Positions 13,137 through 45,380 of a DNA stretch of 64,000 bases are shown here, piece by piece. The position numbers and the translations under genes were made by a program. How positions within the stretch are numbered: the first letter of the stretch is position 1; the number at the start of each line of letters is the position of its first letter. This DNA is from an uncultured Alphaproteobacteria bacterium (lineage in GTDB: Bacteria; Pseudomonadota; Alphaproteobacteria; RF32; CAG-239), in NCBI GenBank assembly GCA_944393235.1, contig CALXZJ010000002.1:1739-65738 (forward strand), in the 5' to 3' direction. The notes below the pieces were generated by a model. That model did not search any database. It had not been told where the DNA came from and was given only the letters and a program-made list of their open reading frames with translations.

Positions 13137-14096
13137 ATGGTTAAAATTAACGACATATTTTTCTCGGATATATACATCACACCGGAAAAAGTAGCATACA
13201 TTCCGGATGATTTAACCGAAAACGGATTACAGATATTTGTGGCTTCTGACTTTGAAGAGTTTTATAAACTTGTTGAAGATTCGTATGAAGGAAATTCCAG
13301 TTATTCTGTTTTATATGAAAATGTGTTTTTTCGTGTAGAGCGCAGCATGACTGTCACAGGCGTCCAATATTGTATTCGAAAAATGCCCAAAGTCGTTCCT
13401 GATTTTGACACATTAGGATACAGAAAAGAGCTTGCAACTTATTTAAATAATTTATGTCGGGCGTCAGGTCTTATCTTGTGGGCAGGTGCAACCGGTTCGG
13501 GCAAAACGACCTCTATTTCGGCATTGCTAAAAGAATTTCTTGTTCGTGAAGGCGGTTTTGCATACACCATTGAAGATCCTTCTGAAATGCCGCTTGACGG
13601 CGAATATACGGCTTTAAATGGTTCTTTTGGGCTTTGCAAGCAGACACAACCGATTAACAACAACTGGGGCGAATCTTTAAAATCAGCTTTACGCTCTAAG
13701 CCGCGTTATATTATGGTTGGTGAGATTCGCACACCAGATGCTGCCAGTGAAGTCCTTAGAGCGGCAACATCCGGACACTTAGTGCTTTCCACTATTCACG
13801 CCAATAACATTCCGGATGCCATCAACTCATTGGTAAAATATGCATCTTCGGCGGACATGAGTGAATCTTTGGCATATGATTTACTTTCCCGCGGCATTTT
13901 GGCAGTTATGCATCAGTCTTTGCGTGGCGTTGGTCATAAAAGCCCGATTTTAAGGTTTTTGTTTGCCAATCCGGATACGACCAAAGGCTGTCAGGTTAGA
14001 AGTATTATCAAAAGCGGCAAGCTAAATTTAGCAACGCCGATTGAAACCCAAATGACGCGAATGGCACAAGGCCGCCCATTGTTTGAAGATATGTAA
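13137..14096 (+). CDS. Compact PilT/VirB11/DotB-superfamily secretion ATPase (candidate retraction or accessory ATPase)
   Basis: 319 aa. Walker A is GATGSGKTT, the Asp box TIEDPSE, Walker B RYIMVGEIR and the His box GHLVLSTIHAN. It has no long N1 domain as GspE/PilB do. It is convergent with the pil operon. Confidence 0.75.
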   Translation: MVKINDIFFSDIYITPEKVAYIPDDLTENGLQIFVASDFEEFYKLVEDSYEGNSSYSVLYENVFFRVERSMTVTGVQYCIRKMPKVVPDFDTLGYRKELATYLNNLCRASGLILWAGATGSGKTTSISALLKEFLVREGGFAYTIEDPSEMPLDGEYTALNGSFGLCKQTQPINNNWGESLKSALRSKPRYIMVGEIRTPDAASEVLRAATSGHLVLSTIHANNIPDAINSLVKYASSADMSESLAYDLLSRGILAVMHQSLRGVGHKSPILRFLFANPDTTKGCQVRSIIKSGKLNLATPIETQMTRMAQGRPLFEDM

Positions 14097-14108
14097 AAAT
14101 AAAAAAAT

Positions 14109-14137
14109 AATCCGAATCTCGGATTATTTTTTTATTC
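14109..14137. terminator. Bidirectional terminator between the convergent ATPase gene and the pil operon
   Basis: The stem is AATCCGA/TCGGATT. An A-run lies on one side and a T-run on the other. Confidence 0.65.
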
Positions 14138-14725: not shown

Positions 14726-14726
14726 T

Positions 14727-15845: not shown

Positions 15846-15858
15846 AATCTACACACTC

Positions 15859-17523: not shown

Positions 17524-17541
17524 TGCCTGACAAACCTCACT

Positions 17542-19068: not shown

Positions 19069-20347
19069 ATATCGCTCCTTCGTAATACCAGTTATGGCTG
19101 TTTATATCATATTTAATAGTATTAATCTTAAGTCCTGAAAAATTCATTAACAAATCTTTCCATTGCATTGGATCATGATTAGAAGTGAAATTAAATTTAA
19201 CAGAACGATAAACATTTTTTTGCGGAGATGTCCAAGTTTCCGTACCCGTATTGATAGGCATTTGCAGCGCCTGGAACAAATCGTTAATCATATTAATCAA
19301 ATCCACGCTGTTTTTTTCCGGCGGTGAATTTAAATTTTTAACATCTGTTATCGGTACAGAAACAACCACGCTGTTGCCGTTTGCTGCAATTGAACGGCTT
19401 GAAAAAGTAACCCCTGAATTATCAAGAGCGTGATCCATCCATGAAAGTCGACCGACTTCACGCTTCCAAGAAGTAACAAGACTGGTTGGCGTACAGGTAA
19501 TACCTTCAATTTTCCATCCGGGAACAACAATACCGACAACATCTTGTGTTGCTTTAAAACATTTATCTAAAATAGCCTGAGGATCCGGAATGCTTTCCCA
19601 CGGCTTAGGTTCAGGCGGAGGCGGGGCTTTTTCAATTGTTTTGACCGGAACTGGTGCAATAATCGGTTTCTTAGGTGGCGCTAAAAAGACAGAATTTATC
19701 AATGTTGAAACCAACCAAATGGCAGCCACGCCGATAGCAGCGACCACGGCAAACAGTTTCGGACCGCGTAATGCGCGAATTTTTTGTAAATATGCCGTTG
19801 CGCCTTTGTCCAGCATCCCTTCAAGAGACATTTCTTCTGTCTCTTCAATGCCCCATTCGGCAGGGGCAATTTTACGTCCCCAATCCGGCACGGCAAGCAT
19901 AGACATAAACTGTTCTTTGGCGTCTTCTTCATTTAAGAAAAGCATATCGCCGTCAGAAAGGATAATATCGTTTCTGGCGCAAACATACCACCAGCCGTTA
20001 TTTACCTTAAAAACAGCCAAAAATGAAGATCGATCAGATAATGCCGTAGCAACTGTAACGGCTGCCGCCGGCATTTTCTTTTTATAACCTTGGTAAGAAA
20101 CACAAAGACCGAATTGCGGGGATTTACCAGGCTTTAAGCAAAATAAATCCGCACCTTCCAAAACATTTTCAGAAGCCTCTATAATTTCCGTAAAAGGATC
20201 ATCCCGATTCTGCAGCGGTTGCCAGAAGAGGCTGGCGGCATATGGCACGCCGCCAATCTCAAAGTTGGTTCCCCAAGCTTTGGCTTCATCTCTTTCCGGA
20301 GCTGCTTCACCGGAATAGTTTTCATCTAAATTAGCATCTTCCAGCAC
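19058..20347 (-). CDS. PilO-like (IncI/PilO2-type) pilus biogenesis protein
   Basis: 429 aa, GTG start with an AAGGA RBS, and a single central TM helix (LFAVVAAIGVAAIWLVSTLINSVFL). Its size and its position between the secretin and pilP match R64 pilO. No diagnostic motif is known to me. Confidence 0.45.
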   Translation of the reverse strand: MLEDANLDENYSGEAAPERDEAKAWGTNFEIGGVPYAASLFWQPLQNRDDPFTEIIEASENVLEGADLFCLKPGKSPQFGLCVSYQGYKKKMPAAAVTVATALSDRSSFLAVFKVNNGWWYVCARNDIILSDGDMLFLNEEDAKEQFMSMLAVPDWGRKIAPAEWGIEETEEMSLEGMLDKGATAYLQKIRALRGPKLFAVVAAIGVAAIWLVSTLINSVFLAPPKKPIIAPVPVKTIEKAPPPPEPKPWESIPDPQAILDKCFKATQDVVGIVVPGWKIEGITCTPTSLVTSWKREVGRLSWMDHALDNSGVTFSSRSIAANGNSVVVSVPITDVKNLNSPPEKNSVDLINMINDLFQALQMPINTGTETWTSPQKNVYRSVKFNFTSNHDPMQWKDLLMNFSGLKINTIKYDINSHNWYYEGAIYVL

Positions 20348-20362
20348 GGTTTTTCCTTTCCG

Positions 20363-22009
20363 TTAATAATTCATTCTCGATTCAGGAGATAAAGGTGTAT
20401 TCAGCACCACCGGCGTCAGCATAATCACCAAAATACTTCTGGTTTTTTCAGCTGTGGCCGTACCACCCAAAAGCGAATTTTCCGCAGAGCCGACACCGGT
20501 TTTGTTTGCCGTGTTTTCAACTCTCTCATAGCCGCTCAAAATCAGCGTTTCGCCAGATTTCAAAGCAACTTCCTGCGTAAAGCCGCGAGTTTCAATAATC
20601 GGGTTTTGAATATACTGACCGCTGGTTTCTTCCGAACCTTCGCCGCTGCCGCCCAAGTCAACTCTTTCCAACTCAATCAAGTCAGACAATGTCAAGTTAA
20701 ACATCAGCATCAAACGGCCGTGTTCCAAAATCCGCGGCAACACATCAAGTGTGAAACCTGTTTCAATTTCTTCGGTTTCCGTTGACAAGTCATAGTAGCT
20801 GCCATCGCTGCCTGAATTTGTCTTCGTGATTTCGGAAATATAATTCTGCGTCCGAACCACTTGAATAGGCGCAGGCTTGTTGTTCAGGGTCGTTACCGTA
20901 CCGCTGGTAACCAACGTTGTCGTACCTTGTTCAGACAAAGCTTGAATAGCGCCTTCCAGCGTCCAGCTACCGGAAACAATCGCCATTGACAAGTTTTCGG
21001 TAATTTCAGCACCCAAACCGCTACCTGGGCTGGCAAATCCCAAGTCAGTAATGTGGCTACCGCTGATACCGCCGTCGGCTCTGGTGCCGTTAAACACGGC
21101 GCCCAAGTTCAAGCCGTATTGATCGCTGTCTGAAATCGTAACTTGCAACACTTTAACGCTGATAGCTACTTGCCGTGACAATCTAACGTTCTGCTCATTA
21201 ACAAATTTTGCCACCTTACGAATATCTGTCGGCGTACCGGTCAGTGTAATTGTTCCGTTTGATTGATCCATCGTCAACTGTGAGCCTTGGCTTATCATAG
21301 ATTTGATGGATGCCTCAATATTGGCCCACAAATCAATGTTAGCCGTATTGGTAAGCGAAACGGATGAAGAACCCGCGCTACCCTCGGTGGACGAACCGCC
21401 AACGTTGACCGACAAGGTCGGTTTTGTCGGAAGCGTGTAAAGCACAAATGTTTTGGTAATATATTTATAAAAATAAATTTGTTTATTTTCATATTTCCAC
21501 CAGATGCCGAAACGGTTAGAAACCTCGTCCAGCAATCCGCTCAACGGCCCTTTGTAAGAAAGAAGCATTTTTGTGCTATCTGTCCATTGTGCACCGATGG
21601 TTTCCAAACTTGGCGTATTGCTGTCAGCCAAACTTTTGGAGTTTTCTTCCAATTCTTGGTCATAACGGACAGACAATGACGTAATTTTGTTAATCATATC
21701 GCCGATTTCATATAAAGTAATGGGGCGGTTGCTGATTAAGGTAATGCCGTCCGCCGTTTCTAAATAACTTGGCACGGGGTCGCCTTCATATTCAACCTCG
21801 CTGGTATCGCCAAGCCAGATATCGTCTTTAACGCGTATAACATCAATCGGCGCCGGCGTTGTCGGCATTTTTGCTTCTTCTTTAAGAACGACGGTATTTT
21901 CAATTTCGCGTTCCAAAGTTGCGTCCAAATCGGTTGAAACGGAGCAGGCTGCCACCAGCCCGGCTACGGTCGTTCCAATAGCCAAATTGATAATTTTATT
22001 CATATGCAT
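20363..22009 (-). CDS. pilN: Secretin lipoprotein, PilN-type (type IVb pilus outer-membrane channel)
   Basis: The lipoprotein signal is MNKIINLAIGTTVAGLVAAC. The C-terminal secretin core is LNNKPAPIQVVRTQNYI...GFTLDVLPRI...GETLILSGYE...ILVIMLTPVV. A GGAGG RBS favours the ATG at 22009. Confidence 0.85.
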   Translation of the reverse strand: MHMNKIINLAIGTTVAGLVAACSVSTDLDATLEREIENTVVLKEEAKMPTTPAPIDVIRVKDDIWLGDTSEVEYEGDPVPSYLETADGITLISNRPITLYEIGDMINKITSLSVRYDQELEENSKSLADSNTPSLETIGAQWTDSTKMLLSYKGPLSGLLDEVSNRFGIWWKYENKQIYFYKYITKTFVLYTLPTKPTLSVNVGGSSTEGSAGSSSVSLTNTANIDLWANIEASIKSMISQGSQLTMDQSNGTITLTGTPTDIRKVAKFVNEQNVRLSRQVAISVKVLQVTISDSDQYGLNLGAVFNGTRADGGISGSHITDLGFASPGSGLGAEITENLSMAIVSGSWTLEGAIQALSEQGTTTLVTSGTVTTLNNKPAPIQVVRTQNYISEITKTNSGSDGSYYDLSTETEEIETGFTLDVLPRILEHGRLMLMFNLTLSDLIELERVDLGGSGEGSEETSGQYIQNPIIETRGFTQEVALKSGETLILSGYERVENTANKTGVGSAENSLLGGTATAEKTRSILVIMLTPVVLNTPLSPESRMNY

Positions 22010-22745
22010 TCTCATCCTCCATTGTTTCAACCACTAAAACGCGGTTTCCTTTATAAAAAGTAGCAATCGGTGCTGGGCGCGCTCTGGCAAATGCGCGGAT
22101 TAAAGCCGAACTGACATCGGCAAAGCGTCCTCTAAACATCGCGCCGGCACTTAAAACATAATTCCGGTTAGTGTTCCAAACCAGCCGCCAGCCGGATTTT
22201 TCGCTCCAATCGGTTAACAAAGCTTTCAAATTCTGCCCTTCTTCAGCCAACCAGTCTTGAACCGGATCTTCAACATCTTCCATGCCTTCTTCATCTTCGA
22301 TATCACCGCTTGTTTCATCATCTGTTTCGGCGATTTCTTCTTCAACGACTTCTTCTGTTACAGAAGCAAGATCTGAACCGGGGTTAATTTGTTCTTCATA
22401 TTCTATAACTTCATCTTCAATTGACGGGGGAATTGCCGCCGACAAGTTGTTGCCTGCCGCAGCTTGGGAGATCATCCGGTCGCGTGGGTTGCGTTCGCCG
22501 TATTCTCTAAAATCAGCGGCAGTGCTTGTATAATTGACAAACGGATCAGTCGGGCACAATGCCGGATCATCGGTCGTTTGGCAAATATAATCATCTGCCG
22601 GCAAGGCAACTTCTTCCACGACAACCTCTTGAACCGGGCAATTTTGTCCGTTGCATTGAGCCGTATAGGCGGAATTGTTGTGTACACAGCCGCCTACGCC
22701 CCAAAGGCACATCAGGCAGACGGGTAAAAATAGTCTTTTATTCAT
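21996..22745 (-). CDS. Lipoprotein with TcpQ/PilL-like C-terminal domain (secretin-associated)
   Basis: The lipobox signal is MNKRLFLPVCLMCLWGVGGC, followed by an acidic linker. The C-terminus is NLKALLTDWSEKSGWRLVWNTNRNYVLSAGAMFRGRFADVSSALIRAF...ATFYKGNRVLVV. That is the pattern I associate with the TcpQ/PilL domain. It lies directly upstream of the secretin. Confidence 0.6.
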   Translation of the reverse strand: MNKRLFLPVCLMCLWGVGGCVHNNSAYTAQCNGQNCPVQEVVVEEVALPADDYICQTTDDPALCPTDPFVNYTSTAADFREYGERNPRDRMISQAAAGNNLSAAIPPSIEDEVIEYEEQINPGSDLASVTEEVVEEEIAETDDETSGDIEDEEGMEDVEDPVQDWLAEEGQNLKALLTDWSEKSGWRLVWNTNRNYVLSAGAMFRGRFADVSSALIRAFARARPAPIATFYKGNRVLVVETMEDENAYE

Positions 22746-22830
22746 GTTTAATTCCCCTTTGTCATACTTCATAATATTTTCCATATCATACAGGCTGTAA
22801 TTTAAATAATCAAGCATCACAAAACACTTA

Positions 22831-24651
22831 TTACCATGGCTGATAGTAAGAATTATTGTTGTTTTTATTTATCACAACCTCTTCGTTATTGTTAAACCGG
22901 ATATTCCTAATAATAAATGAATTTGGCTCTCGCGACGTGAAAACGATATTGATTTTTCTGAAATCAACGCCGCGGTTGGCTAAAATTGTGCTGAGCAAAT
23001 TGAGGCGTTTTTTTTGCAAAGCAAAAGAACTCGTGCCATCAATCCTGATTTCGATATACATATTGTTGTTATCACGCGCATTGTCTGCAAAAGCATGTAT
23101 CCACCGCAGAGTTTGTCCTGAAATTTCTGCTCGGTTCGGTTGGAAAGAAAGCCGCAATTCTGCCGGCAGAATTTGTGTTGCGGTTTTATTATCATCTCTT
23201 CCTGAAACAATGCCAAAAAAGTCTATACCGTTCTTTTTCTTAGAATTTTGTTTAACGGCAGACTGCTGGGTACTGTTTTGTTTTCCGCTTTCATCATCTG
23301 AAAACCAAGATGCAATACTTTTAAATAAGCCGCTTTGTTTTTCGCTTTCGTTTAACTTGCTCTCATCGGCAGTTGTTTTTTTAGCGGCGTCTTGCTCGGC
23401 TTTTTTCTCCGTATCATCAGTTTTTTCTTTCGGAGAGGCGGTTAATTGCGGCGTTAAATCAGTATCATTCATAATATCTTCCGGGATAGGAATAAGCAAA
23501 TTCTGCATCATCTGATAAGCCACTTTTGTTTCTTTGTCTTGTTCGGCGTTTGTTTCAGGTTTGAGCGCCGCGGCAATTTCCTCTCCGGCTTCGTTGATAG
23601 CATCAGCTGCTTTTTGTTTAACGTTTTCTTCTTGAGATATTTTTGTTATCTCTTGCGCCTCAACTTTGGCAAATTGCTCAACAACGGCCTGATTTTTTGC
23701 AAACTTATTGCCTTTGGCAACCACCCACGGACTGTCGTTTTCCGATGTTTCAGACATTTGCGTCCATTCATTTTGTTTTAAGTCGGCTTCTGCCAAAGTC
23801 TTTTCTTCTTCAAAACCTTCTTCTTCAATTGTACTGACCAGATTATTAGGTTCTAACATGGCAATTTGTGAAGCATTGGCATTTTGCACAACATCAATAT
23901 GTGAATGAAGCACGCCATCGCCTTCGGTTAGCGGAATGCCGTTTTCTTCAATAATGTTGTTTTCATTTGCTGTTGCCGGCAGATTATTGTCAGCAACCAG
24001 AATTTTTTCTTCAGTTGTATCGGCAGTTTCATCTTCCGGCATATAAATAATTTCGGCAGCTTTTGCCGGCTCGGTTGTTTCAGCCTCAAAAGTATCGCTG
24101 ATATCGGCATAAACAATGCCGCTTTTCTCATAATCAACAGAAGGATTAAGTTTAGTAATAACGTTTTCTTTTTCCAAAACAATTTCCTGAGCATCAGCCA
24201 AATCGGTACTGATAATATTTTTTTGTTCTGAAACATGGTTGTCATTTTTTGCCGCCTGACTGATTTTGCTTTGCTCTTTGCCTGCAGTTTTAGAGATTGA
24301 TACTAAAGCTGCTTCGCCTTCCACCACGGCAACATTTTTCATAGTTTCTGCCGGTGGCGGCGGCAGACTGCCGATAGAAACGGCTGCGGTTTGGTTGCTT
24401 TCAGGAGCAGAACTTAAAACAGGCGCTGTCAATTTTTCAATTTCGCTGACATCAATTTGAAAATCGCTTGATTTCGGCTTCAAAGTTTCAACCGAGGTTG
24501 AAAATAAAGAAATATTTTGAATTTTGGCTGAATTTTCAGGCATTCTATTGTCTGTTTTTGGCGTATGCATAAACACTTTATTAACGCCGAGCACCGCTAA
24601 TAAAGAAAATAAAAAGCTGCAAACAAAATTTTTCAAGCTTTGTTTATACAT
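22831..24651 (-). CDS. Membrane-anchored acidic protein, first gene of the pil operon, with a possible degenerate OmpA/MotB-like C-terminal domain
   Basis: It has an N-terminal TM helix and ~450 aa of E/K/A/T-rich low-complexity sequence. The C-terminus is LRLSFQPNRAEISGQTLRWIHAFADNARDNNNMYIEIRIDGTSSFALQKKRLNLLSTILANRGVDFRKINIVF. This follows the OmpA-like spacing but lacks the canonical TD..G..N..LS..RA residues. Confidence 0.35.
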   Translation of the reverse strand: MYKQSLKNFVCSFLFSLLAVLGVNKVFMHTPKTDNRMPENSAKIQNISLFSTSVETLKPKSSDFQIDVSEIEKLTAPVLSSAPESNQTAAVSIGSLPPPPAETMKNVAVVEGEAALVSISKTAGKEQSKISQAAKNDNHVSEQKNIISTDLADAQEIVLEKENVITKLNPSVDYEKSGIVYADISDTFEAETTEPAKAAEIIYMPEDETADTTEEKILVADNNLPATANENNIIEENGIPLTEGDGVLHSHIDVVQNANASQIAMLEPNNLVSTIEEEGFEEEKTLAEADLKQNEWTQMSETSENDSPWVVAKGNKFAKNQAVVEQFAKVEAQEITKISQEENVKQKAADAINEAGEEIAAALKPETNAEQDKETKVAYQMMQNLLIPIPEDIMNDTDLTPQLTASPKEKTDDTEKKAEQDAAKKTTADESKLNESEKQSGLFKSIASWFSDDESGKQNSTQQSAVKQNSKKKNGIDFFGIVSGRDDNKTATQILPAELRLSFQPNRAEISGQTLRWIHAFADNARDNNNMYIEIRIDGTSSFALQKKRLNLLSTILANRGVDFRKINIVFTSREPNSFIIRNIRFNNNEEVVINKNNNNSYYQPW

Positions 24652-25366
24652 ATTTCATAAGCACCTCATGAGCAAAAAAGCGCGCAAAAACAATCGATTG
24701 ACAATATTTACACACTTTTTAATAGTCCTATTGCCTAAAAGATACAACTAATAATATTAAAATAGAGTTAATGCTAATTCTTTTGCCATGTTCCGAGGTG
24801 CTGCCTTTTTTCTATCGTCATGCCACGGCCGAGCGGTGCCCTTTTTCTATTGTCATGCCACTGCCGAGCACCGCTCGGCAGTTTAGGCATCTCTTCCTTT
24901 TTTCTCTGTCATGCCTCCGAGGTGTTGGAACAACACCGAGGATAAGGCATCTCATCCCATATGTGCGACAGACGCCTAACCTCGAGTGTTAACGCTCCTT
25001 CAGAGCGTGACGATGTGGTACGTCACCCCACGAGGATACGCCAGTATCCGAGTTTAGGGGTCTCCCAAAGGACGCCTCAACCACTGCACAATCGCACGCA
25101 CGGGTACATAACAAGAAAAAGGGGCAGCCCTTTCTCTCTAAGATACGCAAATATTAGAAGTTTATTTACCTTTTCACGTTATAAAATAACCGATTGAATG
25201 CCGAATTTGAATGTGAATTTTTTGTTACACAGTGCAATTATTATTAAAAAACAATAAGATAATACATTTTTGGATATCCAAAAAAAACTGGCAAAATGTT
25301 TTCAAATCTGGTATTCTAAAGATGTATAAGAAGTTTTGTTATAATTTAAATTTTAGGAGAAAAGCA
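24652..25366. promoter_or_regulatory. Divergent intergenic control region between the pil operon (-) and the virB2-led T4SS operon (+)
   Basis: 715 bp without a credible ORF. It separates the two first genes, which point away from each other. It contains the hairpin-repeat array and, near 25338, a TATAAT hexamer ~25 nt upstream of the virB2 AGGAG RBS. Confidence 0.45.
24785..25140. repeat. Array of ~42-46-bp nested-hairpin units (REP/BIME-like modular repeat), copy A
   Basis: Units share the ends GTCAYSCC...AGGSRTCTC, and these ends pair with each other (ATGCC/GGCAT or ACCCC/GGGGT). The inner palindromes differ: CTGCCGAGC-acc-GCTCGGCAG, GGTGTTG-gaa-CAACACC, GGATAC-gcca-GTATCC. 24890-24990 is near-identical to 56260-56360. 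25022-25090 is near-identical to 25833-25900. Confidence 0.85.
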
Positions 25367-25717
25367 ATGAAGTTTCTTAAAAATAATGCCTTTACCCTGC
25401 TTGCCTTTGCTCTGGTATTTGCGATGACGATGATCGGCGATGCTAATGCAGAATCTGTTATGGAAACGGCTAAGACTAAAGCAGTAAGCGTTTTTCAAGC
25501 TGTTAAAACAATCATTTTCATTGTTGGTGGTTTTGGTTTGATCGCGTTAGCGTTCCAGGCAATTTTCGGTAAAGTGAAGTGGCCGTGGTTTGCCGGTCTG
25601 GCTTTCGGTCTGGCAGTTTTAGCGGCAGCCGGTGCAATTGTTAACTACGCAACAGGGGATTCCAATGTAAATGACAGTACTCTGGGTGATACTTTCAGTA
25701 GTTCTACATCGGATTAA
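25367..25717 (+). CDS. virB2: T4SS pilin, VirB2/TrbC family (paralog 1)
   Basis: 116 aa with an AGGAG RBS and signal peptide (...MIGDANA/E). Two TM helices are separated by a short basic loop (FGKVKWPWF). It is first in a B2-B3-B4 gene order. Confidence 0.75.
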   Translation: MKFLKNNAFTLLAFALVFAMTMIGDANAESVMETAKTKAVSVFQAVKTIIFIVGGFGLIALAFQAIFGKVKWPWFAGLAFGLAVLAAAGAIVNYATGDSNVNDSTLGDTFSSSTSD

Positions 25718-25729
25718 TCAAAAAATATG

Positions 25730-25754
25730 GGGAAAAGCTTTAATGGCTTTTCCC
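25730..25754 (+). terminator. Stem-loop directly after virB2 paralog 1 (possible attenuating terminator)
   Basis: The stem is GGGAAAAGC/GCTTTTCCC (9 bp) with a 7-nt loop. There is no clean T-run. Confidence 0.4.
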
Positions 25755-25788
25755 TGTTATAAAATACAGTAAAGAAGATTTTATTATC

Positions 25789-25940
25789 GGTCTCACACCC
25801 GTCACCCCACGAGGATACGCCGTCCAAATCCTGTCACCCCACGAGGATACGCTAGTATCCGAGTTTAGGGGTCTCCCAAAGGACGCCTCAACCGCCGCAC
25901 GGTCGCGCGTCGGTGGCGTGACAAAAAAAGGTAACGTGAC
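25789..25940. repeat. Hairpin-unit repeat, copy B (between virB2 paralogs 1 and 2)
   Basis: It contains a truncated unit and a full GTCACCCCACGAGGATACGCTAGTATCCGAGTTTAGGGGTCTC unit, plus the CCAAAGGACGCCTCAACC tail shared with copy A. Confidence 0.85.
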
Positions 25941-26014
25941 AATATTGTAGCCATCCATAAAACGTTAATAAAATCTTCTTTATGATAAAACCAAAAAACG
26001 AAAGGTGAAAAACA

Positions 26015-26368
26015 ATGTTGCGCATAAATTTTAAGAAATATATTTTAGCGGGGCTGCTGGCATTCGCGCTTTCTTCAATTTTATGCGCAACCGATTCATA
26101 TGCCGTGTTTGAAAACCTCACCAGCACCGGTTGGGAAATTTTCGGCGGCATGCGTAAAATTATTTTTGGCGCGGCTGGCTTTGGTATCATTGCTGTTGCT
26201 ATTGGCAGCCTTTTTGGTTCCTTAAACTGGAAATGGCTCAGCGCAATCGTTATCGGCTTGATTGTGATTGCCCTAACCGTTGGTTTGGTACAATATCTGG
26301 TGGCAGGAACCGGTGCTGATATCTCGGTTTCCGGCATTACTGACACTTTAGTCAACGCCGGCGGCTAA
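26015..26368 (+). CDS. VirB2/TrbC-like pilin (paralog 2, divergent)
   Basis: 117 aa with a signal peptide and two TM helices flanking the loop GSLNWKWL. The topology and length match paralog 1. Confidence 0.65.
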   Translation: MLRINFKKYILAGLLAFALSSILCATDSYAVFENLTSTGWEIFGGMRKIIFGAAGFGIIAVAIGSLFGSLNWKWLSAIVIGLIVIALTVGLVQYLVAGTGADISVSGITDTLVNAGG

Positions 26369-26406
26369 AAAGTTTTTTATTGACTAACTTTTTTAAGGAG
26401 GCGGTC

Positions 26407-27447
26407 ATGATGAACAAAACAAACAAAATATTAGCGCTTTTGTTGCCGGCACTGTTCGTTTGTTTGCCGGTTGAGGCGTTTGCAGCGGGAGATATCTTTA
26501 CCATCATCTCCAACAAAATGGTTTCCACCGTTTTAGATGTCCGCAAAATTGTTTATGTCGTTGCCGGCTTTGGCTTGGTCATGTTTTCTGTTTTGGCTAT
26601 CTTTAACAAAATCAGCTTCAAACATTTATCATATATCATGATCGGCTTGTTTCTGCTTTCAGTCATGATGCCGTTTATCAACTATTTCAGCGGCGCCAAT
26701 TTGCGGGATTCCTCTTACACTTATGATGATTTTATTTCCGGTCAGGATTCCAGCATCACCGGCAGCAATGTGGAACAAACAGAAGACTGCACTACTGGAG
26801 CCAAATGCCCTGGCGGTACGGAAAATGGCGATGGCTCCGGCAGCAGCAACGCCGGCAGCGCCTTGGATAATGAGCTGGGTGAAAGTTATGGTGTTTCTGA
26901 TAACCAGGGCGGTACTACCGGCGGCTCGACAAACAGCACATCTAATGCCAACGCCTCAACCGGTGGTGAAAACTCCGGCGAGAAAAAGAGCTTCAAAGAA
27001 AAACTTAAAGACCTTGCCGATACTGCCGAAGATATCATCAGTGCCGGGAAAAGTGCGGTTAACTCTGTTGAATATGGCATGAATGTGGTCGACGAAACCA
27101 AGGAAGGTATTAGCGATGTTAGCGACATTATCTCCGGCGATGGCAATATTATTGATAAAATCGGCGACTTGGCAGGTTCTGTTAAGGGTTCAGTTGACAG
27201 TATAACTTCAAATGCAGATCAGTCTTTAGGCAGTGTGGCAAATACGGTAGATTCAGCGGGAGATGTTTTTGGCGTTTCGGATGCTTCTGAAAATTCCGGT
27301 GTCCAAGATGCTGTAGATACCGGTAAAGAAGCCAATAAAGATATTAGAAACGAAACAAATGATCACGCTAATCCGGTAAAAAATATCACAGGCGCAATTC
27401 GTACCGGACAAGATTTGATTAACCGAATGGGAAATTGGTTCGACTAA
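26407..27447 (+). CDS. VirB2-like pilin module fused to a ~240-aa G/S/D/N-rich C-terminal extension (paralog 3)
   Basis: An AGGAGG RBS precedes the ATG at 26407. The N-terminal ~105 aa has a signal peptide (VEAFA/AG) and two TM helices around NKISFKHL. The rest is low-complexity (GGTTGGSTNSTSNANASTGGENSG) followed by repetitive acidic helical sequence. Confidence 0.6.
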   Translation: MMNKTNKILALLLPALFVCLPVEAFAAGDIFTIISNKMVSTVLDVRKIVYVVAGFGLVMFSVLAIFNKISFKHLSYIMIGLFLLSVMMPFINYFSGANLRDSSYTYDDFISGQDSSITGSNVEQTEDCTTGAKCPGGTENGDGSGSSNAGSALDNELGESYGVSDNQGGTTGGSTNSTSNANASTGGENSGEKKSFKEKLKDLADTAEDIISAGKSAVNSVEYGMNVVDETKEGISDVSDIISGDGNIIDKIGDLAGSVKGSVDSITSNADQSLGSVANTVDSAGDVFGVSDASENSGVQDAVDTGKEANKDIRNETNDHANPVKNITGAIRTGQDLINRMGNWFD

Positions 27448-27556: not shown

Positions 27557-27847
27557 ATGCGAGATATGATTTTAAAAGCCGTTGCTCAGCCGCCAAAGCT
27601 TTTTTGGGGGCCGGTTTTACCCGTCGCTTTAAATGCCGGCTTGCAGTTCCCTTTAATGTTTATGATGATTGGTGTCGGCGATGTCAACCCTCTGGTGTTT
27701 ATCTTTACCATTATCATAGCTCATGGCTTTATCATCTTGGCAGGCACGCGCGAACCGCACTTGTCAGCCATGATTCAGGCTTTTGGCCAAACCAACAAAG
27801 TTTCAACCAATTTATACCCGGAAAGAGGAAACAAATTTGAACCCTGA
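27557..27847 (+). CDS. virB3: VirB3/TrbD-family T4SS inner-membrane protein
   Basis: 96 aa, MRDMILKAVAQPPKLFWGPVLPVALNAG... followed by a hydrophobic hairpin. It lies immediately upstream of and overlaps virB4. Confidence 0.8.
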   Translation: MRDMILKAVAQPPKLFWGPVLPVALNAGLQFPLMFMMIGVGDVNPLVFIFTIIIAHGFIILAGTREPHLSAMIQAFGQTNKVSTNLYPERGNKFEP

Positions 27848-30269
27848 TTTTGATTTTTTTACCATATTTGTAGACGGTTTAAGCAACGTTGAGGTTGCCA
27901 TAACCGTTATTGGTTTTGTTTCAGCAGCGGCTTTTGCTGTTTTGCTTTCAACCCGCTTTGGCGCTTGGGTTTTGCCGCAGCCGCGTGAATCCCGCGTGTC
28001 AGACTTTTTGCCCTTTGCCAAACTGATGGAAGACGGCATGACCATCCGCTGCACCAATGGCTCATATGCCCGCGTCTTTCGCATTACCGGTATGGATTTG
28101 GCTTCAGCCACGCCGGAAAAGGTGTATTCCATGATGGAGGCGCGCAAATCATGGATTGATAACCTCTCAGAGCTTCAAATTGTCTGTCGGGTAATTACAC
28201 TGCGTGAACGCGCTGAAATGGAAGAAGATAAAGGCGATTTTCAAAACGAACTGCTGGAAAAAGTATCTAAAGTCTGGTCTGACAACATGAGCCGGATTTA
28301 TACCAACCACCACTATATCATTTTGTCAGTCATTGACCGCAAAGATGCCTTAAAAGACCTGAATTATGCCAGCCAATCCCTGGTTGCGACATTAGGCGAA
28401 TATGGTGTCTCGCAAATGTATGAATCTCCGGACAGCCCGGCGGTAGACAGTCCGCTTTATGTCTTTAGCCGCCTTTGCAGCCCGGTCTCCAAGCCTGAAC
28501 CAAAAATCCGCCATGCCGAAGGGCCGGAGTTAAACGAAATGCTTACCTCTGACCATATTCACTTTACGCGTGAACAGGGGATTATCCGTTTCTTTTCCGG
28601 CGAAAAAGAACTGTATGAAATTGTGATGGGCATCCGCACCACCGGCGATTATATGGACGAAAGCATGATTGTCTCTCTGCTCTCGATTGATTGTGAGCTG
28701 GTTCTTTTGCACAATATCCGCCCGATTTTTAAACCTCAGGCACGTATGATGCTTATCCAACAGCAGCGCATGGCGGCATTAACCAGTTTTTCGCCGGAGG
28801 TGGTTGCTCAATATGGCGAAGCCTTAGCCACAATAGAAGACAGCGATGCCGATTATCAAGCTTTAACCGAATATTCAATGTCGGTTATCCTTAAAGGTGC
28901 AAGTCAGGAAGAGCTGGATTTTGGTGAATCTGAAGTACAAAGAATTTGCCGTAGTTTTGGCGTTACGCCTGTGCGTGAAGGCTGGGTGGCTCAAGCAACG
29001 TTCTTTAGCCAATTCCCGACATACGATACATATCCGCGGACATATAGATATTTATCTCGGGTTGTTTCTTTGGCAATTTCATTTGACAAACCGGCGGAAG
29101 GTTTCGGCAAGAGCGACTGGGGACCGGGCGCTATTACGGTTTTCCGCACCATGTCCGGTTCGGCTTATCGTTTCCAATTCCACGTTTCTTCTGAAGAATC
29201 TGCTGTGGCGCACTGCTGTATTATTGGTCCGACCGGACAAGGTAAAACAACCTTGCTGACTTTTTTGGCAGGACAAGCCATGCGGCATGGCGATTTAAAA
29301 GTGTTCTTCTTTGACCGTCACCGCGGTGCTGAAATTTTCACGCGCTCCATAGGCGGCGCATACATCGGCTTTGACGGCGACAATAAAAATGTGTCCTTAA
29401 ATCCGTTTGATGCTGAAAACACGCCTAACAACCGTGCCTTTTTACGCCGCTGGATGAAGTCCATCACCATGGCAGATGATGCCCTATCCGAGCGTGAAAT
29501 TGCTCGCGCGGTAACCACGGCGTTTGACTATCTGCGTCCGGAAGAACGTATTATGAAAAATCTGTACAAAAGCTGTTTTTCGCCAACCGGAACCATGCGC
29601 CGCGAACTGTATCGCTGGATTAATCCGGACCAATACGGTAATATTTTTAATGCTGATACCGATAGTCTGGACTTAAAAGCCAAACGCTTTATGGCATTTG
29701 ACTTTACGCATATTTTTGAAGACGAAACCTTGGCTCCGGCTGTCATTAGCTACATCATGCACCGTATCCAATCCGAAACCGGCGAAACCGGCGTGCCGTC
29801 GTTAATTATGATCGATGAAACGGCGCCAATGTTAAAGCACCCGATGTTTAGAGATTATTTCATGATTGGTTTGCAAGAAGGCCGTAAAAAACGTCAAGCT
29901 TATTTGTGCGCCTTCCAACAGCCGAATATTATAGACAAGTTAGGCGTCGGCGAGGTTATCCGCGGTCAATGCCAAACGGTTATCTTTTTCAGAAACCCGC
30001 AAGCAATGGTAGAAGACTATGTCAGTTGGAACTTAACCCAGAGCGAGCTTGACTTTGTTTTCGGCAAAACCTATCGCGATTTTCCGTATGCAATATTGTT
30101 GTCGCGTCCGGCAACCGGTGAATCTGTCATCTTAGATGTTGATTTAAGCGCTTTGGGTCCGTATTTGAAACTTTATAATTCCGGCCGTAAAAACGTGCTG
30201 CTGGTTGAAGAGCTGATAAAAGAATATGGCGAGAACAATTTTGTTACAAAATATTTAAATATGGCGTAA
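27837..30269 (+). CDS. virB4: VirB4/TrbE-family T4SS ATPase
   Basis: ~810 aa. Walker A is IIGPTGQGKTTLL and Walker B SLIMIDETAP. The start is uncertain: I prefer the TTG at 27837 (GAGGA RBS, overlaps the virB3 stop) to the ORF-track TTG at 27783. Confidence 0.9.
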   Translation: MNPDFDFFTIFVDGLSNVEVAITVIGFVSAAAFAVLLSTRFGAWVLPQPRESRVSDFLPFAKLMEDGMTIRCTNGSYARVFRITGMDLASATPEKVYSMMEARKSWIDNLSELQIVCRVITLRERAEMEEDKGDFQNELLEKVSKVWSDNMSRIYTNHHYIILSVIDRKDALKDLNYASQSLVATLGEYGVSQMYESPDSPAVDSPLYVFSRLCSPVSKPEPKIRHAEGPELNEMLTSDHIHFTREQGIIRFFSGEKELYEIVMGIRTTGDYMDESMIVSLLSIDCELVLLHNIRPIFKPQARMMLIQQQRMAALTSFSPEVVAQYGEALATIEDSDADYQALTEYSMSVILKGASQEELDFGESEVQRICRSFGVTPVREGWVAQATFFSQFPTYDTYPRTYRYLSRVVSLAISFDKPAEGFGKSDWGPGAITVFRTMSGSAYRFQFHVSSEESAVAHCCIIGPTGQGKTTLLTFLAGQAMRHGDLKVFFFDRHRGAEIFTRSIGGAYIGFDGDNKNVSLNPFDAENTPNNRAFLRRWMKSITMADDALSEREIARAVTTAFDYLRPEERIMKNLYKSCFSPTGTMRRELYRWINPDQYGNIFNADTDSLDLKAKRFMAFDFTHIFEDETLAPAVISYIMHRIQSETGETGVPSLIMIDETAPMLKHPMFRDYFMIGLQEGRKKRQAYLCAFQQPNIIDKLGVGEVIRGQCQTVIFFRNPQAMVEDYVSWNLTQSELDFVFGKTYRDFPYAILLSRPATGESVILDVDLSALGPYLKLYNSGRKNVLLVEELIKEYGENNFVTKYLNMA

Positions 30270-30351
30270 TTGATAAAATATTATTTTTATATTTTGAAAT
30301 AGTATGGTAAAATAAATTTATATGGTGTCTTTATATATCAAGGAGGTCAGT

Positions 30352-32178
30352 ATGAACAAAAAACAAACATCTAAAATTTTTTGTTTAACATGCATAAGCA
30401 CAGTCATGCTGGCTTCAACGGCTTATGGCCTGTGGCCGACGACGGATGTGGCTCAAATAACAAACATGATTAACAGTGTTTCAACCCAGATAGAATCAAC
30501 ATCTTCTACCGTTCAGTCTACCTTATCAATTGGTAAAATACAACAGGCTATCGGCGATAACGTCGGCAGTCTGTCAAAGTTTACCAACGCTGCTGAAGAT
30601 GCCAAAAAAGCCGCAGAAGAACTTGAAAAACAAAAAAAGCGGGCTGAGCGCTTGCAGGAATTAAAAGAAAAATATGAAGAACAAAAAGAAAAAATAGAAG
30701 ATACAATTGATGAAGGCAAAGAAACCGCCGAGCAATTATCCGATACGGCGAAAGATAAATATGAAGACGGTATGTCTTTATATGAAAGCGGAAAAACGAC
30801 TTTAGGGCAAAGCAGCGGTTCTGATGACAGCGTTGTTGATAATACCGATGAAGATACGCTTACAACGCAAGAACAAGAAGATGTTTTCACTTCAGGCGAA
30901 AACCATACAACAACTGAAAACAAAACGCCTGACAATAATAACACAAATGACGATACGGCAGACCTGATGGACGATGAGGCTCTGGATGATGAGGCAATTG
31001 CTGATTTGATTTCAGATGAAGAATTTTCCGAAGGCGGTTGGGATGATTTGCCGACTTTAGATCAAACTGAAACGCTAAATGGAACACGCTTGCCGGGAAG
31101 TGGTGGAGCGTTACCGGAAACCGGAATTCTGCCGCCCAATACAATAGGTCGCCGACCATTTACGCCAAACGTTACGGTAGAACCTGTTGCGGTTGGCAGT
31201 GAAACGATAGAAACCGGAGGAAACCCGACCGCAGAAACCAATGAAGCTACGGCAGCTTTTGAAGAAACAACAGCCGAAGAAGAAGTTTTATTACCACAAA
31301 CCGAAGGGAACGCTGGACAGCCGACAGAGCCTGAACTTTCTTCATCATCGGCGCCGTTATCAACCCCGGCATCTGTGACATCATCAGCCTCAACATCTGC
31401 AGCGCCTTCCGTAACGCGCCGAGCTTTCAGAATACAAAAAGGGACGGTTGAAAACACAGCGCCGACACTATCTGCGCCGGTTGATAATGCGCCAACCGCA
31501 GCGCCTATGATTATGGTACCGGCAGCTGACGCGGCAAAGCCGGTTGAGGCGGATGTCTCTGTCAATCCTGCAATTGCGCCGATGTCAATCAAACAAAGGC
31601 CTGCCCGCCGCGCATTTACAACCTCGTCGGCAGATTTCTTTTATCAAAGTACTCGACCTTTTGCTTTTGCTCAAACAACTGAAACCTCATCATCATATAA
31701 AACCGGAACGACGGATAACGGGAAGTTCATATATTCAGACATCATCGCCAACAAATGCGGTATCAATTTCGATGATGAATTTGATGAAGAAACTTGGGAT
31801 GAATGTGTCAAAGAATGGGTTATGGCTATGAATGATCCGAATGCGGAAACAGCCGCCGAATGGAGAAAAGCATACAATGAAGCGGAAAGAGAGCATGTTT
31901 CTGCCGATTTAGGCATGGCTTTAGTGCAAAAAAGCTATGCGGCTGCATTTGATACCGAGGTGGCAAAAGATTTAAAAAGCAAATCTCAGGCGCTGACCAA
32001 TGAGCGTGAAGAGATTGCTTTTGCCGGGAAAGCTGCCCTAACCAACCAAGAAATTATCATTCGTTTGATGGAGGCTATGACGGGGCAGGTTGTAACAGGA
32101 GCTTGGTCGAGCGTAAAGCTGATTGAAAAAGGTTATTACGATGAGGAAGAAGCCGATGAAGACGCAACTAATGAATAA
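30352..32178 (+). CDS. Secreted protein with a VirB5/TrbJ-like N-terminus, a coiled coil, a long T/E/P/A-rich disordered middle and a helical C-terminal domain
   Basis: AGGAGG RBS and a signal peptide. The mature N-terminus WPTTDVAQITNMINSVSTQIES resembles the (I/V)PV(I/T)D...(I/L).Q start of TrbJ/VirB5. It lies just after virB4, where trbJ/virB5 normally sits. Confidence 0.4.
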   Translation: MNKKQTSKIFCLTCISTVMLASTAYGLWPTTDVAQITNMINSVSTQIESTSSTVQSTLSIGKIQQAIGDNVGSLSKFTNAAEDAKKAAEELEKQKKRAERLQELKEKYEEQKEKIEDTIDEGKETAEQLSDTAKDKYEDGMSLYESGKTTLGQSSGSDDSVVDNTDEDTLTTQEQEDVFTSGENHTTTENKTPDNNNTNDDTADLMDDEALDDEAIADLISDEEFSEGGWDDLPTLDQTETLNGTRLPGSGGALPETGILPPNTIGRRPFTPNVTVEPVAVGSETIETGGNPTAETNEATAAFEETTAEEEVLLPQTEGNAGQPTEPELSSSSAPLSTPASVTSSASTSAAPSVTRRAFRIQKGTVENTAPTLSAPVDNAPTAAPMIMVPAADAAKPVEADVSVNPAIAPMSIKQRPARRAFTTSSADFFYQSTRPFAFAQTTETSSSYKTGTTDNGKFIYSDIIANKCGINFDDEFDEETWDECVKEWVMAMNDPNAETAAEWRKAYNEAEREHVSADLGMALVQKSYAAAFDTEVAKDLKSKSQALTNEREEIAFAGKAALTNQEIIIRLMEAMTGQVVTGAWSSVKLIEKGYYDEEEADEDATNE

Positions 32179-32833
32179 AGCTTTTATAGTCATGGCTGTC
32201 TTAGGCTTTGGCATGAGCTTTTCTCTGTCTGCACGAGCTGACATTGAAGCGGTAAGTGCTACAGCGAAAGGAATTATTATCCGGGCTGAAGATCTCAAAA
32301 AAGAAGCAGAAAAAAGGCTTTCAGAAGCAAAAAATCTAATAGCCTCACAAATTCAGGATTTTAACAATCTTAAAAGCTCAGTTGAAGGGCTCAAAGATAA
32401 TTTAACCAATCCGCTTGATTCTCCCAAAACATTTGTTTTGGGTGGTGTGCAAAAATCAACTGATGGCTCCAAAACTGATGGTGAATTGGCTAAAGATGTT
32501 GAGAAAACTTATGTTCGATACGAAGGGGATGATACCATAGTCAGAGCTCGAAAACTGCAAAATGACTTAAACAAAGTTATGGGTGAAAACGCCGCTCTTC
32601 TTTATGCCCGCACGCTGATACTGCGCCAAGAGCTGCTCAATGAAAAGAACCCGGAACATTCGCTTGAAACAATTGAAGATGCCTTGCAAGCCAGCAATGA
32701 CATGGTTCTTCTCTCTATGCAGCGCTGGAACAAAATTTTAGCCATGCAGGCTTATATCAACGAATACAACAATACCGTTGCTATCCATAATTTCAAACGG
32801 GAAGCTGAGGAGGAAGAAGATAATGAAGAATAA
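32156..32833 (+). CDS. Secreted all-helical protein (~226 aa), T4SS-linked, function unknown
   Basis: GAGGA RBS and signal peptide ending SLSARA/D. It has a helical/coiled-coil composition and an acidic tail (EAEEEEDNEE). It is translationally coupled to its neighbours. Confidence 0.6.
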   Translation: MKTQLMNKAFIVMAVLGFGMSFSLSARADIEAVSATAKGIIIRAEDLKKEAEKRLSEAKNLIASQIQDFNNLKSSVEGLKDNLTNPLDSPKTFVLGGVQKSTDGSKTDGELAKDVEKTYVRYEGDDTIVRARKLQNDLNKVMGENAALLYARTLILRQELLNEKNPEHSLETIEDALQASNDMVLLSMQRWNKILAMQAYINEYNNTVAIHNFKREAEEEEDNEE

Positions 32834-34079
32834 ACAAATTAACATATTCCTCCTAACTTGTTGCTGTTTCTTTGCTGTTGCTGCGGCAGAAACAGCCAGA
32901 GCGCAGACCAAACTTGATGCCGGGACATTGTCAAACACCATTTTAAAAACCATCGGAAACACCGAAGAAAGTGTTGGAGAAGCGACTAAAACTGCCGGTG
33001 AAAAAGCACAAGAATTATTAATCGGGCCGGTAGAAAATGCAAAGTTTGAAAAAATAAAGGCCCTAAAAGAAGATATTACCAAAGCACAGAGCACCATACA
33101 GGATAAATATGAAGAAGTTTCTGAAGATGTTGAAAATGCGGCTTCCGATATCAACGAAACAGCCGCCGATATCAACAAGACTGCCGACCAGATTGAAAAC
33201 AGCAGCCTTAAAAGCACGGCTGATTTAGGCAAACAACTCAACGACGTCAATCAGCAAATAGAAAATTACCAAACGGCAGCCTCTGAAGAACTAACAGCAA
33301 AAGCCAAAGCCGCCAATGACAATTATGCCGCTTTGCAGGCAATGTATGATGCCGCAGAAAACGAAGATGATAAAGCGGCAATTTCTGCCCAAATGTCTGC
33401 TTTGACGGAAGAAATCGACGGATACAACACCACGCTTGAGCAATTTGAAAATGGCGAAGTTGAAGATTATTTTAAAGATGATGAAGAATATCAGTCTTTG
33501 CTTGCCCAGCGTAATGACATTAACGCGCAGCTAAAAGACATTGGCGCAGCGGCTGCCGGTCTTGCCCTGACTTCAATTTCTAATCTTTTAAGCAAAACTG
33601 ATGAAGAAAAACAAGAAGAATATACTGGCGTGATTCTTAAAAATTTTCTGCAAAAGGATGAGCCTAACACGCCTGAAAATGTCAGCAGGGTGATGAATTA
33701 TCGGCGGGAAGTTTTCAAACAGGATGTTGCACATGCCTTATATACGGCTATTTCGCTAAAACTTAAGCTGGATGAAGAACTAAAGAGCATAAAGACCAAA
33801 CAAAAAAACATGGCAGCAGCCGATTATAAAATGACTGCCGGCAATTTGTTGGTTGAACAACGGATTGATGATATCAAAATTTTATATAATTATACCAATC
33901 TGCTGATTGCCGAAATGCGCTTGAAAACCTCGCAAAACATGCTTAATCAAGACCAGCGTTTAAAAAATTATGATAAAGATCCGGCAGTGCTTAACTTAGA
34001 TAATTATGTCTTTACCGAAGACGATATTCCGTCAGATGAAGGCAAAAGAAGCTTTTTGGATGATGTAACGGCAAATTAA
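32823..34079 (+). CDS. Secreted coiled-coil protein (~418 aa), T4SS-linked, function unknown
   Basis: GGAGGA RBS. The start overlaps the upstream stop. The signal peptide ends ETARA/Q. It is E/K/A/D-rich helical sequence throughout. Confidence 0.6.
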   Translation: MKNKQINIFLLTCCCFFAVAAAETARAQTKLDAGTLSNTILKTIGNTEESVGEATKTAGEKAQELLIGPVENAKFEKIKALKEDITKAQSTIQDKYEEVSEDVENAASDINETAADINKTADQIENSSLKSTADLGKQLNDVNQQIENYQTAASEELTAKAKAANDNYAALQAMYDAAENEDDKAAISAQMSALTEEIDGYNTTLEQFENGEVEDYFKDDEEYQSLLAQRNDINAQLKDIGAAAAGLALTSISNLLSKTDEEKQEEYTGVILKNFLQKDEPNTPENVSRVMNYRREVFKQDVAHALYTAISLKLKLDEELKSIKTKQKNMAAADYKMTAGNLLVEQRIDDIKILYNYTNLLIAEMRLKTSQNMLNQDQRLKNYDKDPAVLNLDNYVFTEDDIPSDEGKRSFLDDVTAN

Positions 34080-34089
34080 GGAGGAAACG

Positions 34090-41737: not shown

Positions 41738-41752
41738 TTAGGCAGGAGGATA

Positions 41753-45379: not shown

Positions 45380-45380
45380 A

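Follow-up and report, generated by a model that had tools for sequence, protein, structure and literature searches.

We have analysed a stretch of 64,000 nucleotides (here called the window) from an uncultured alphaproteobacterium of the RF32/CAG-239 lineage (GenBank assembly GCA_944393235.1, contig CALXZJ010000002.1, positions 1,739 to 65,738), and describe three tandem VirB2-like pilin genes that lie directly ahead of the virB3 and virB4 genes of a chromosomal type IV secretion system (T4SS). The open reading frames (ORFs) of this triplet, all on the plus strand, were confirmed at 25367..25717, 26015..26368 and 26407..27447, and are referred to below as genes A, B and C. Each starts with ATG and is preceded by a putative ribosome-binding site, AGGAG for A, AAGGTG for B and AAGGAGG for C. 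An initial annotation of this DNA had proposed that the three products are VirB2-like pilins of one common layout and that the third is fused to an extension of about 240 residues. Both proposals hold, the first by Pfam, by BLASTP matches to a Microvirga VirB2, by the defining residues of the family and by the place of the genes upstream of virB3-virB4, and the second by an architecture that is kept in more than 150 homologues.

Each pilin has an N-terminal, hydrophobic signal segment that ends in Ala-x-Ala, and hydropathy analysis places two more hydrophobic helices after it, with a short loop between them that reads GKVKWPW in A, GSLNWKW in B and NKISFKH in C. Pilin A (25367..25717, 116 aa) is the candidate for the major VirB2 pilin. 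Its signal peptide ends in ANA ahead of ES and is followed by the hairpin GGFGLIALAFQAIFGKVKWPWFAGLAFGLAVLAAAG, the tail motif GDTF and a variable end. Pilin B (26015..26368, 117 aa) represents a second VirB2 paralogue class; GITDTL is its conserved tail, and an orthologue was present in every locus that we examined. A further gene, D (55648..55989, 113 aa), 30 kb away, had been proposed as a fourth copy, and it is indeed an A-type paralogue, 72% identical to A, although it must be placed on the minus strand. Additional A-type copies occur in two of the related loci, L020 and L045. The A and D genes form an inverted repeat (25349-25656 versus 55700-56007, 74% identity), which encloses about 30 kb of DNA comprising the entire T4SS as well as yihA, yidC and rnpA.

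Pilin C is built of several segments in series. Its signal peptide (aa 1-26, 26407..26484, plus strand, as are the segments that follow) has hydrophobic residues at 8-26 and ends in PVEAFA ahead of AGD. The VirB2 hairpin core comes next (aa 27-103, 26485..26715; PF04956 residues 3-84, E 4e-4), in which the loop N67-K-I-S-F-K-H73 lies between helices at about residues 30-66 and 71-95. AlphaFold2 modelled the hairpin with a predicted local distance difference test score (pLDDT) of 74-84, and 22 columns of the core, including the entire loop N-K-I-S-x-K-H, were invariant among 96 homologues. The post-core segment (aa 104-136, 26716..26814) contains the tail motif Y-x-D-D-F-I, G119 and the sequence C128-x5-C134-P135; G119 and P135 are kept in at least 90% of homologues and the two cysteines in about 70%. 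In our alignment, Y-x-D-D-F-I falls opposite D-[TS]-[FL], the tail motif of A, B and the Microvirga VirB2, exactly at the point where the extension starts. An acidic linker of low complexity, rich in G, S, T and N (aa 137-190, 26815..26976; pLDDT <50), shows the lowest conservation and the most insertions and deletions of the protein between species, and leads into an acidic amphipathic helical region of 156 residues with a net charge of -14 (aa 191-346 plus the stop codon, 26977..27447).

The G/S/T/N stretch and acidic helices that had been described in the third ORF are borne out by composition and periodicity. Residues 104-190 comprise 20% G, 17% S, 13% T and 10% N and carry a net charge of -12, and the helical region has a hydrophobic periodicity of 3.55 residues, with a power of 216 as compared with a maximum of 115 in 300 shuffles. 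The best-conserved motifs of the helical region are GDIISGDGNxxDKxGxLA and, at the C-terminus, G-[ND]-W-F. GDIISGDGN was considered by eye as an EF-hand or RTX-like motif, but its spacing fits neither consensus and the idea was dropped. AlphaFold2 applied to the extension alone, with its own alignment, returned six helices at a pLDDT of 37. A database search with the extension alone found nothing, its own orthologues included, for which composition filtering is the probable reason; a local search of the loci examined, with the filter off, detected homology only to the extensions of other C-type proteins.

Proteins of the VirB2 family are recognized by two transmembrane segments, the first of which has two conserved Gly, and by an Ala at the site of signal-peptide cleavage (PMC2653234). 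All three features are present in A, B and C. In 25 sequences of the three types, A28, G55 and G57 (A numbering; the two Gly form a G-F-G motif in the first helix) never vary, and very few other columns are invariant in all classes. In BLASTP comparisons with the TrbC/VirB2 of Microvirga plasmid pMVF16-3, we obtained E values of 1.5e-17 for A, 5e-11 for B and 2e-6 for C; the Microvirga protein, which ends in DFGDTLTAR, is 26-36% identical to the pilins, the 36% being to A. The N-terminal modules of all three are recognized by PF04956, as the initial annotation had anticipated, but only A scores above the gathering cut-off of 27.9 bits (A, 35.6; B, 25.8 with E 1.2e-5; C, 20.9). Several C-type homologues carry a precomputed PF04956 match, and NCBIfam offered no model for A, B or C. 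The nearest annotated T4SSs are those of plasmids from Microvirga, Sphingosinicella, Erythrobacter and Paracaedimonas, whose VirB4 proteins are 31-39% identical to that of the window. The two that we inspected, from Microvirga and Erythrobacter, have a single annotated TrbC/VirB2 of 111-117 aa ahead of VirB3-VirB4, and the order of three VirB2 genes, VirB3 and VirB4 holds in the window and in all related loci. In mature size A and B lie within the 60-80 residues or so of the family, and mature C would have about 320 residues if unprocessed. Sequence, topology and context all place C in the VirB2 family, from which it departs in size and modularity.

Database searching with C matched 151 proteins, and the 120 of these that were listed, 217-584 aa in length, all have the core followed by an extension; they are annotated as "hypothetical protein" where named at all, and most are nameless. 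A scan of GTDB species representatives for C located it in 38 genomes, which all belong to uncultured Alphaproteobacteria of the gut or rumen (human, mouse, rabbit, deer, yak, cattle), and the window itself matches chicken-gut metagenomes. With the C core as the query, a HMMER scan reached 378 representatives at E <=1e-3, 148 of them at E <=1e-10. Among 246 retrieved proteins, a set that is biased towards C since C was the query, 188 have the C-type loop motif; these range from 115 to 2138 aa (median 395), a C-terminal extension longer than 150 aa is found in 173, and in 36 the signal peptide and the core are also separated by an insert exceeding 50 aa, the longest being 825 aa. In P0229, P0186 and the C-type proteins of loci L033 and L043, coiled coils rich in alanine, lysine and glutamate flank the core on both sides, and such arms reach 800-1200 residues in relatives. 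The giant C-type proteins gave no Pfam domain, and tblastn of C against 72,556 plasmids gave no match.

We assigned every pilin-like ORF in about 45 loci to a class by its best match. In every locus where the contig allows, the order is A-B-C, then virB3 and virB4, and loci whose C proteins are only 28% identical still show this synteny. Within each of the three classes, conservation is strong across dozens of species. Because of the fixed order across loci and the strong conservation within each class, we take A, B and C to be three old, non-redundant paralogues and not a variable array. Short C-type proteins occur in two distant loci (144 aa in L044 and 123 aa in L045), which suggests that the ancestor was a triplet of short pilins; in both of these loci (regions L044:3905-4804 and L045:4696-5520) an extra secreted ORF of about 147 aa, with no match to the extension profile, lies between the short C-type pilin and virB3. 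There are also single-chain fusions, namely P0163 (216 aa), which joins an A-type to a C-type module, and P0165 (308 aa), which has three VirB2 modules. The internal modules of both proteins are without signal peptides. Such fusions require that the two ends of a module be on the same side of the membrane, and suggest that VirB2 modules act side by side in one orientation.

To follow variation within the species, we compared the window with three conspecific contigs (L001, L046 and L047), that is, four strains in all. The DNA of virB3, virB4, gene B and the C core is 98-100% identical among the four, with the C core at 99-100%, and the hairpin of pilin A is invariant. The only hypervariable coding segments are, in A, the mature N-terminal helix and C-terminal tail (51-77% DNA identity) and, in C, the helical region (67-94%). 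When the window is compared with L001, synonymous divergence (dS) in gene C is 0.06 for codons 1-103, 0.07 for codons 104-190 and 0.54 for codons 191-346, and the synonymous excess in the last of these segments is significant (Fisher p 2e-9); the corresponding ratios of nonsynonymous to synonymous divergence (dN/dS) are 0.07, 0.14 and 0.26. The contrast between a dS of 0.54 in the helical region and 0.06-0.07 elsewhere in gene C indicates that divergent alleles of a helical domain that is still constrained have been brought in by recombination. Variation of the pattern found in this region is typical of exposed surface structures.

Downstream of gene C lies a virB3-like gene (27557..27847, plus strand), whose 96-aa product has two hydrophobic segments. 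This product matched an annotated Microvirga VirB3 (BLASTP, E 8e-7) and has a 96-aa orthologue at the same position in all loci examined; no Pfam match and no NCBIfam model was found for it. The gene for the virB4 ATPase follows (27837..30269, plus strand; PF03135, E 3.7e-17). Its longest ORF (828 aa, from TTG 27783) is probably over-extended, and we prefer as its start the TTG at 27837, giving 810 aa, because the orthologues have 810 aa and overlap virB3 by 11 nt. After virB3 and virB4, the order of genes 3' of C continues with four secreted helical proteins, two VirB8, VirB9, a beta-flower protein, VirB10 and VirB11.

The products of the four genes that come directly after virB4 (30322-38214; 618, about 230, about 418 and 1374 aa) are secreted and largely helical, each with one hydrophobic segment at the N-terminus; the genes occupy the place of VirB5, VirB6 and VirB7 in related plasmid systems. 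Five relatives were checked, and four of them have genes of matching size at these positions; L006 differs in that the first gene is much shorter. The four proteins belong to no Pfam or NCBIfam family, and a search for VirB5 among the secreted proteins after virB4 (alignment Y236 against Pfam and the PDB) yielded nothing convincing. The two VirB8 paralogues are in tandem (38214-38984, 256 aa; 39345-40094, 249 aa). In the region 40115-49598 the outer parts of the machine are elaborated: VirB9 has a C-terminal SPOR (peptidoglycan-binding) domain, and beta-flower (PF21785/PF21784) and DUF3659 repeats make up a 1208-aa protein as well as the first 1100 or so residues of the 1418-aa VirB10, a repeat-rich protein that recalls the CagY type of VirB10. 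A polytopic VirB6 was searched for in the window and none was found, nor does the window contain a relaxase or VirD4. There was no TraF/TrhF-like S26 peptidase among the window ORFs scanned with Pfam, and one may be encoded elsewhere in the genome.

The T4SS locus is chromosomal and is located between a divergent type IVb pilus cluster and yihA/yidC/rnpA. The cluster (13137-24651, mostly minus strand) encodes a PilS/bundlin-like pilin, T2SSF, T2SSE, PilO, a secretin, a TcpQ-like protein and a 606-aa acidic protein, and a second VirB11/PilT-like ATPase is encoded at 13137..14096. A type IVb cluster stands next to the pilin genes in most relatives, L005 being an exception. On the other side of the window, at 59940-60977 and 61122-62159 (minus strand), lie tandem genes for 345-aa paralogues of no Pfam family, with DNA about 71% identical over 300 nt.

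The spacers around the pilin genes contain elements of their own. A G+C-rich hairpin just 3' of the gene A stop codon (25730..25754) was found by a consensus scan, in which its stem was scored on the minus strand only, and is assigned to neither strand; it may act as an attenuator or terminator that separates A from B-C. Upstream of A there is a structured intergenic repeat (24790..25150, plus strand; repeat families D5, D7 and D10), with related copies at 25795-25925 in the A-B spacer and at 56150-56385 upstream of D. Its 19-nt core, GTCACCCCACGAGGATACG, occurs six times, within the window only in these three spacers, as compared with a chance expectation of none. All six copies are on the plus strand though D is on the minus strand, and orientation relative to the gene is therefore not fixed. 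The repeats differ between strains in unit number and in insertions and deletions. Comparison of the whole window with Rfam (gathering thresholds) and ARAGORN found nothing, and the intergenic repeats are therefore not a known RNA. In metatranscriptome contigs, pieces of the repeat are joined to unrelated sequence, so that the spacer repeat may be a dispersed element.

We see about an even chance that A serves as the major pilin and that C, as a minor pilin or anchor, puts a variable domain on display at the surface. According to this proposal, which we draw from sequence comparisons, one chromosomal T4SS would be served by three functionally specialised pilins of the VirB2 family: A would be the major, surface-exposed subunit of the fibre, with variable termini and extra gene copies, B a conserved second subunit, and C a low-copy pilin or anchor. 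The duplicated pilin genes are A-type, as expected for a major subunit. The signal peptide of C would be cut off between AFA and AG, and the two-helix hairpin would enter the inner membrane with its basic loop, NKISFKH, in the cytoplasm. The VirB4/VirB11-driven machine would then extract the hairpin, which would pack as any VirB2 does, with both termini on the outer face of the fibre or of a stub, and the extension would project outward as a disulfide loop, a flexible acidic linker and the 156-residue amphipathic helical region.

In the structures of the F-pilus and T-pilus, the pilin termini are at the outer surface. Cyclic pilins have their N- and C-termini linked covalently, which makes the ends adjacent, and the loop between the helices faces the lumen (PMC11722321). 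With the loop towards the lumen and the termini adjacent on the outer face, an extension at either terminus would point outwards, and the additions found at both termini in relatives fit a hairpin with its two ends on the same side. Beyond the family membership, architecture, conservation and strain variation described above, we infer the topology of C, its incorporation into a pilus and a role for its extension as an adhesin or shield. The initial annotation had suggested that the appended domain could decorate the pilus or serve as an adhesin or tip; this suggestion, still a guess, draws indirect support from the hypervariability of the extension between strains and from the arms of 800-1200 residues that relatives carry on the same core.

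Several of our observations weigh against this proposal. Pilins B and C fall below the Pfam gathering cut-off, and when the A, B and C cores were combined for a profile search of the PDB, no solved pilin was reached and only chance hits (E >0.1) were returned, a failure that is unsurprising for proteins so short and divergent. The mature N-terminal helix is invariant in C and hypervariable in A, and the pilin module of C may be buried and not exposed like an ordinary subunit. The conserved motif that directly precedes the extension might be where processing takes place. For the extension no fold was predicted with confidence (pLDDT <50 in the full-length or the isolated model), and it has no Pfam or NCBIfam domain; in a PDB profile search with full-length C it matched only generic coiled coils (chemoreceptor signalling domains, designed bundles and the vinculin tail), and Foldseek returned 0 hits from the PDB for the full-length AlphaFold2 model. 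Given the lack of a confident fold or domain and the generic nature of the coiled-coil matches, an adhesive role for the extension is a guess. Finally, metatranscriptome data gave minimal support, with a few short contigs over the locus, one of which, of 268 nt, spans the B-C junction.

Some of the same observations would be accounted for if C stayed in the envelope, its hairpin in the inner membrane or in a periplasmic stalk and its extension serving as a scaffold, a gate or a substitute for a VirB6/VirB5 platform. Neither a polytopic VirB6-like protein anywhere in the window nor, by Pfam or PDB profile, a VirB5 among the secreted helical proteins after virB4 is there to fill that place; the hairpin of C, N-terminal helix included, is near-invariant, as expected if it docks to conserved machinery; and VirB2-like proteins are required for substrate transfer even without pili (PMC12857230). 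Yet hypervariability between strains, with imported alleles, would be unusual for an internal structural part, and the coiled-coil arms that flank the core on each side in relatives, at 800-1200 residues, would by our reckoning far exceed the width of the periplasm and are hard to fit into it. Also, an extension whose length varies from about 0 to more than 1200 residues argues against a precise structural role. We consider an envelope-resident C unlikely, though an alternative to be taken seriously.

The shared tail motif raises a second alternative, that the extension is a pro-region or a released cargo, cut after this motif to leave a short pilin, with the freed helical polypeptide being degraded or acting as a secreted factor. 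The motif lies about 15 residues after the second helix, as D-[TS]-[FL] in A, B and the Microvirga protein and as Y-x-[DN]-F-[IL] in C, and what comes after it is a variable tail in the former and the whole extension in C. C-terminal trimming of VirB2-type pilins is documented (PMC11722321), and the short C-type proteins of 123 and 144 aa indicate that the core can work without an extension. On the other hand, the window has no TraF/TrhF-like S26 peptidase, known pro-regions are 5-27 residues and not 240 to more than 1200 in length, and the large inserts between signal peptide and core in some relatives could not be removed by C-terminal trimming. The extension, with its conserved motifs and a dN/dS of 0.26, is also under selection as a protein in its own right. 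Release of the extension therefore seems to us decidedly improbable. A third explanation, in which C arises from a frameshift (the fusion of two ORFs in 26407..27447 that the initial annotation had held up as a possibility), an assembly error or a decaying paralogue, is refuted by the comparative data: the same continuous ORF, in the same frame, recurs in many independent assemblies and species and among the 151 homologues, purifying selection acts strongly on the core (dN/dS 0.07) and also on the extension (0.26), and the extension is never a separate gene in the loci examined.

Returning to C as a displaying pilin, we can extend the proposal to a heteropolymeric fibre of all three VirB2 paralogues, in which C would be the display pilin, its invariant hairpin inserted in the fibre, perhaps in a nucleating or tip layer that replaces VirB5, with a surface domain swapped by recombination. 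This extended form is possible but doubtful. A role for C as tip or nucleator is kept alive by two observations, the lack of a recognizable VirB5 and the invariant N-terminal helix of C.

To our knowledge, every VirB2-type fibre solved so far is a homopolymer built from a single small pilin, in most cases with lipid bound. Adhesion by T4SSs is assigned to separate proteins, for example VirB5, CagL and TraN. The clade described here is distinct in having three pilins per machine, one of which bears hundreds to thousands of residues as a cargo, attached to the hairpin at either end, and in the exchange of that cargo between strains. If the proposal is correct, C would be the first modular minor pilin, and the fibre the first heteropolymeric architecture for conjugative-type pili, with a display domain that ranges from about 240 residues here to fibrillar coiled coils of more than 2000 residues in relatives. 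It would offer a new view of fibre assembly, tip formation and target recognition in T4SSs, as well as a natural template for the display of large domains on conjugative-type pili. The locus points to an organelle for contact with the host or with neighbouring cells in widespread uncultured gut Alphaproteobacteria (chicken, human, mouse, rabbit and ruminants).

The locus pilins share with the canonical VirB2/TrbC proteins (A. tumefaciens VirB2, R388 TrwL and pKM101 TraM) the cleavage-site Ala, the two helices, the Gly in the first helix and the short basic loop, and in both cases the gene is directly upstream of virB3-virB4. Their nearest relative found is the sole TrbC/VirB2 of plasmid pMVF16-3 from Microvirga sp. 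VF16, which has the tail motif DFGDTL. Whereas canonical systems have one pilin gene, for a product of about 110-120 aa, there are three classes here, the third longer by 240 residues (up to more than 1200 in relatives). In addition, the plasmid relatives carry a MobA/MobL relaxase, whereas the present system is chromosomal, with no relaxase or VirD4 in the window.

Precursor residues beyond the second helix, and a conserved motif before a variable C-terminal tail, are common to C, RP4 TrbC and R27 TrhA. RP4 TrbC loses 27 residues and R27 TrhA 5, for which a TraF/TrhF signal-peptidase homologue is needed (PMC11722321). The extension of C differs in being 10 to 50 times longer and in having conserved motifs of its own, and no such peptidase was found in the window. 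The tip proteins of the VirB5 type (pKM101 TraC, TrwJ, CagL) are secreted, mostly helical, about 150-220 residues long, pilus-associated and involved in adhesion, and since no VirB5 was recognizable in the locus, the extension of C could in principle fill the VirB5 role. However, VirB5 proteins are without a VirB2 hairpin, and we detected no sequence similarity between them and the extension; specifically, none to VirB5/TraC was found by Pfam or PDB profile, and the 0 hits from Foldseek were obtained with a model whose confidence is too low for them to count.

A conserved polymerisation module that carries a variable domain, at low copy next to a major subunit, is known from FimH and PapG, in which a pilin is joined to a lectin domain, from GspK and from the PilY1-associated minor pilins of type IV pili. 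C would resemble these subunits in the logic of its function only; the folds and assembly machines are unrelated. Our search of the literature for extended or fused VirB2 pilins turned up only short multi-copy arrays and short pro-regions, and no modular minor subunit of the VirB2 type.

Several tandem virB2-like genes per T4SS are likewise found in Bartonella Trw (trwL1-L8), among the virB2 paralogues of Anaplasmataceae and in the six-pilin array of Patescibacteria, and surface variation is a proposed theme of such multi-copy arrays (PMC12857230; PMC3556328). Pilin A shows an array-like trait in that it varies between strains and has extra copies. The initial annotation had drawn a parallel with Anaplasmataceae, which stands as regards multiple copies but not as regards their nature, the genes here forming three fixed, individually conserved classes. 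The copies in arrays are short and variable in sequence and are read as antigenic or host-range variants, in contrast to the ancient classes of fixed order, one of them modular, that we observed here. Unlike in the arrays, variation in this locus is concentrated at the ends of A and in the C extension, and B is invariable.

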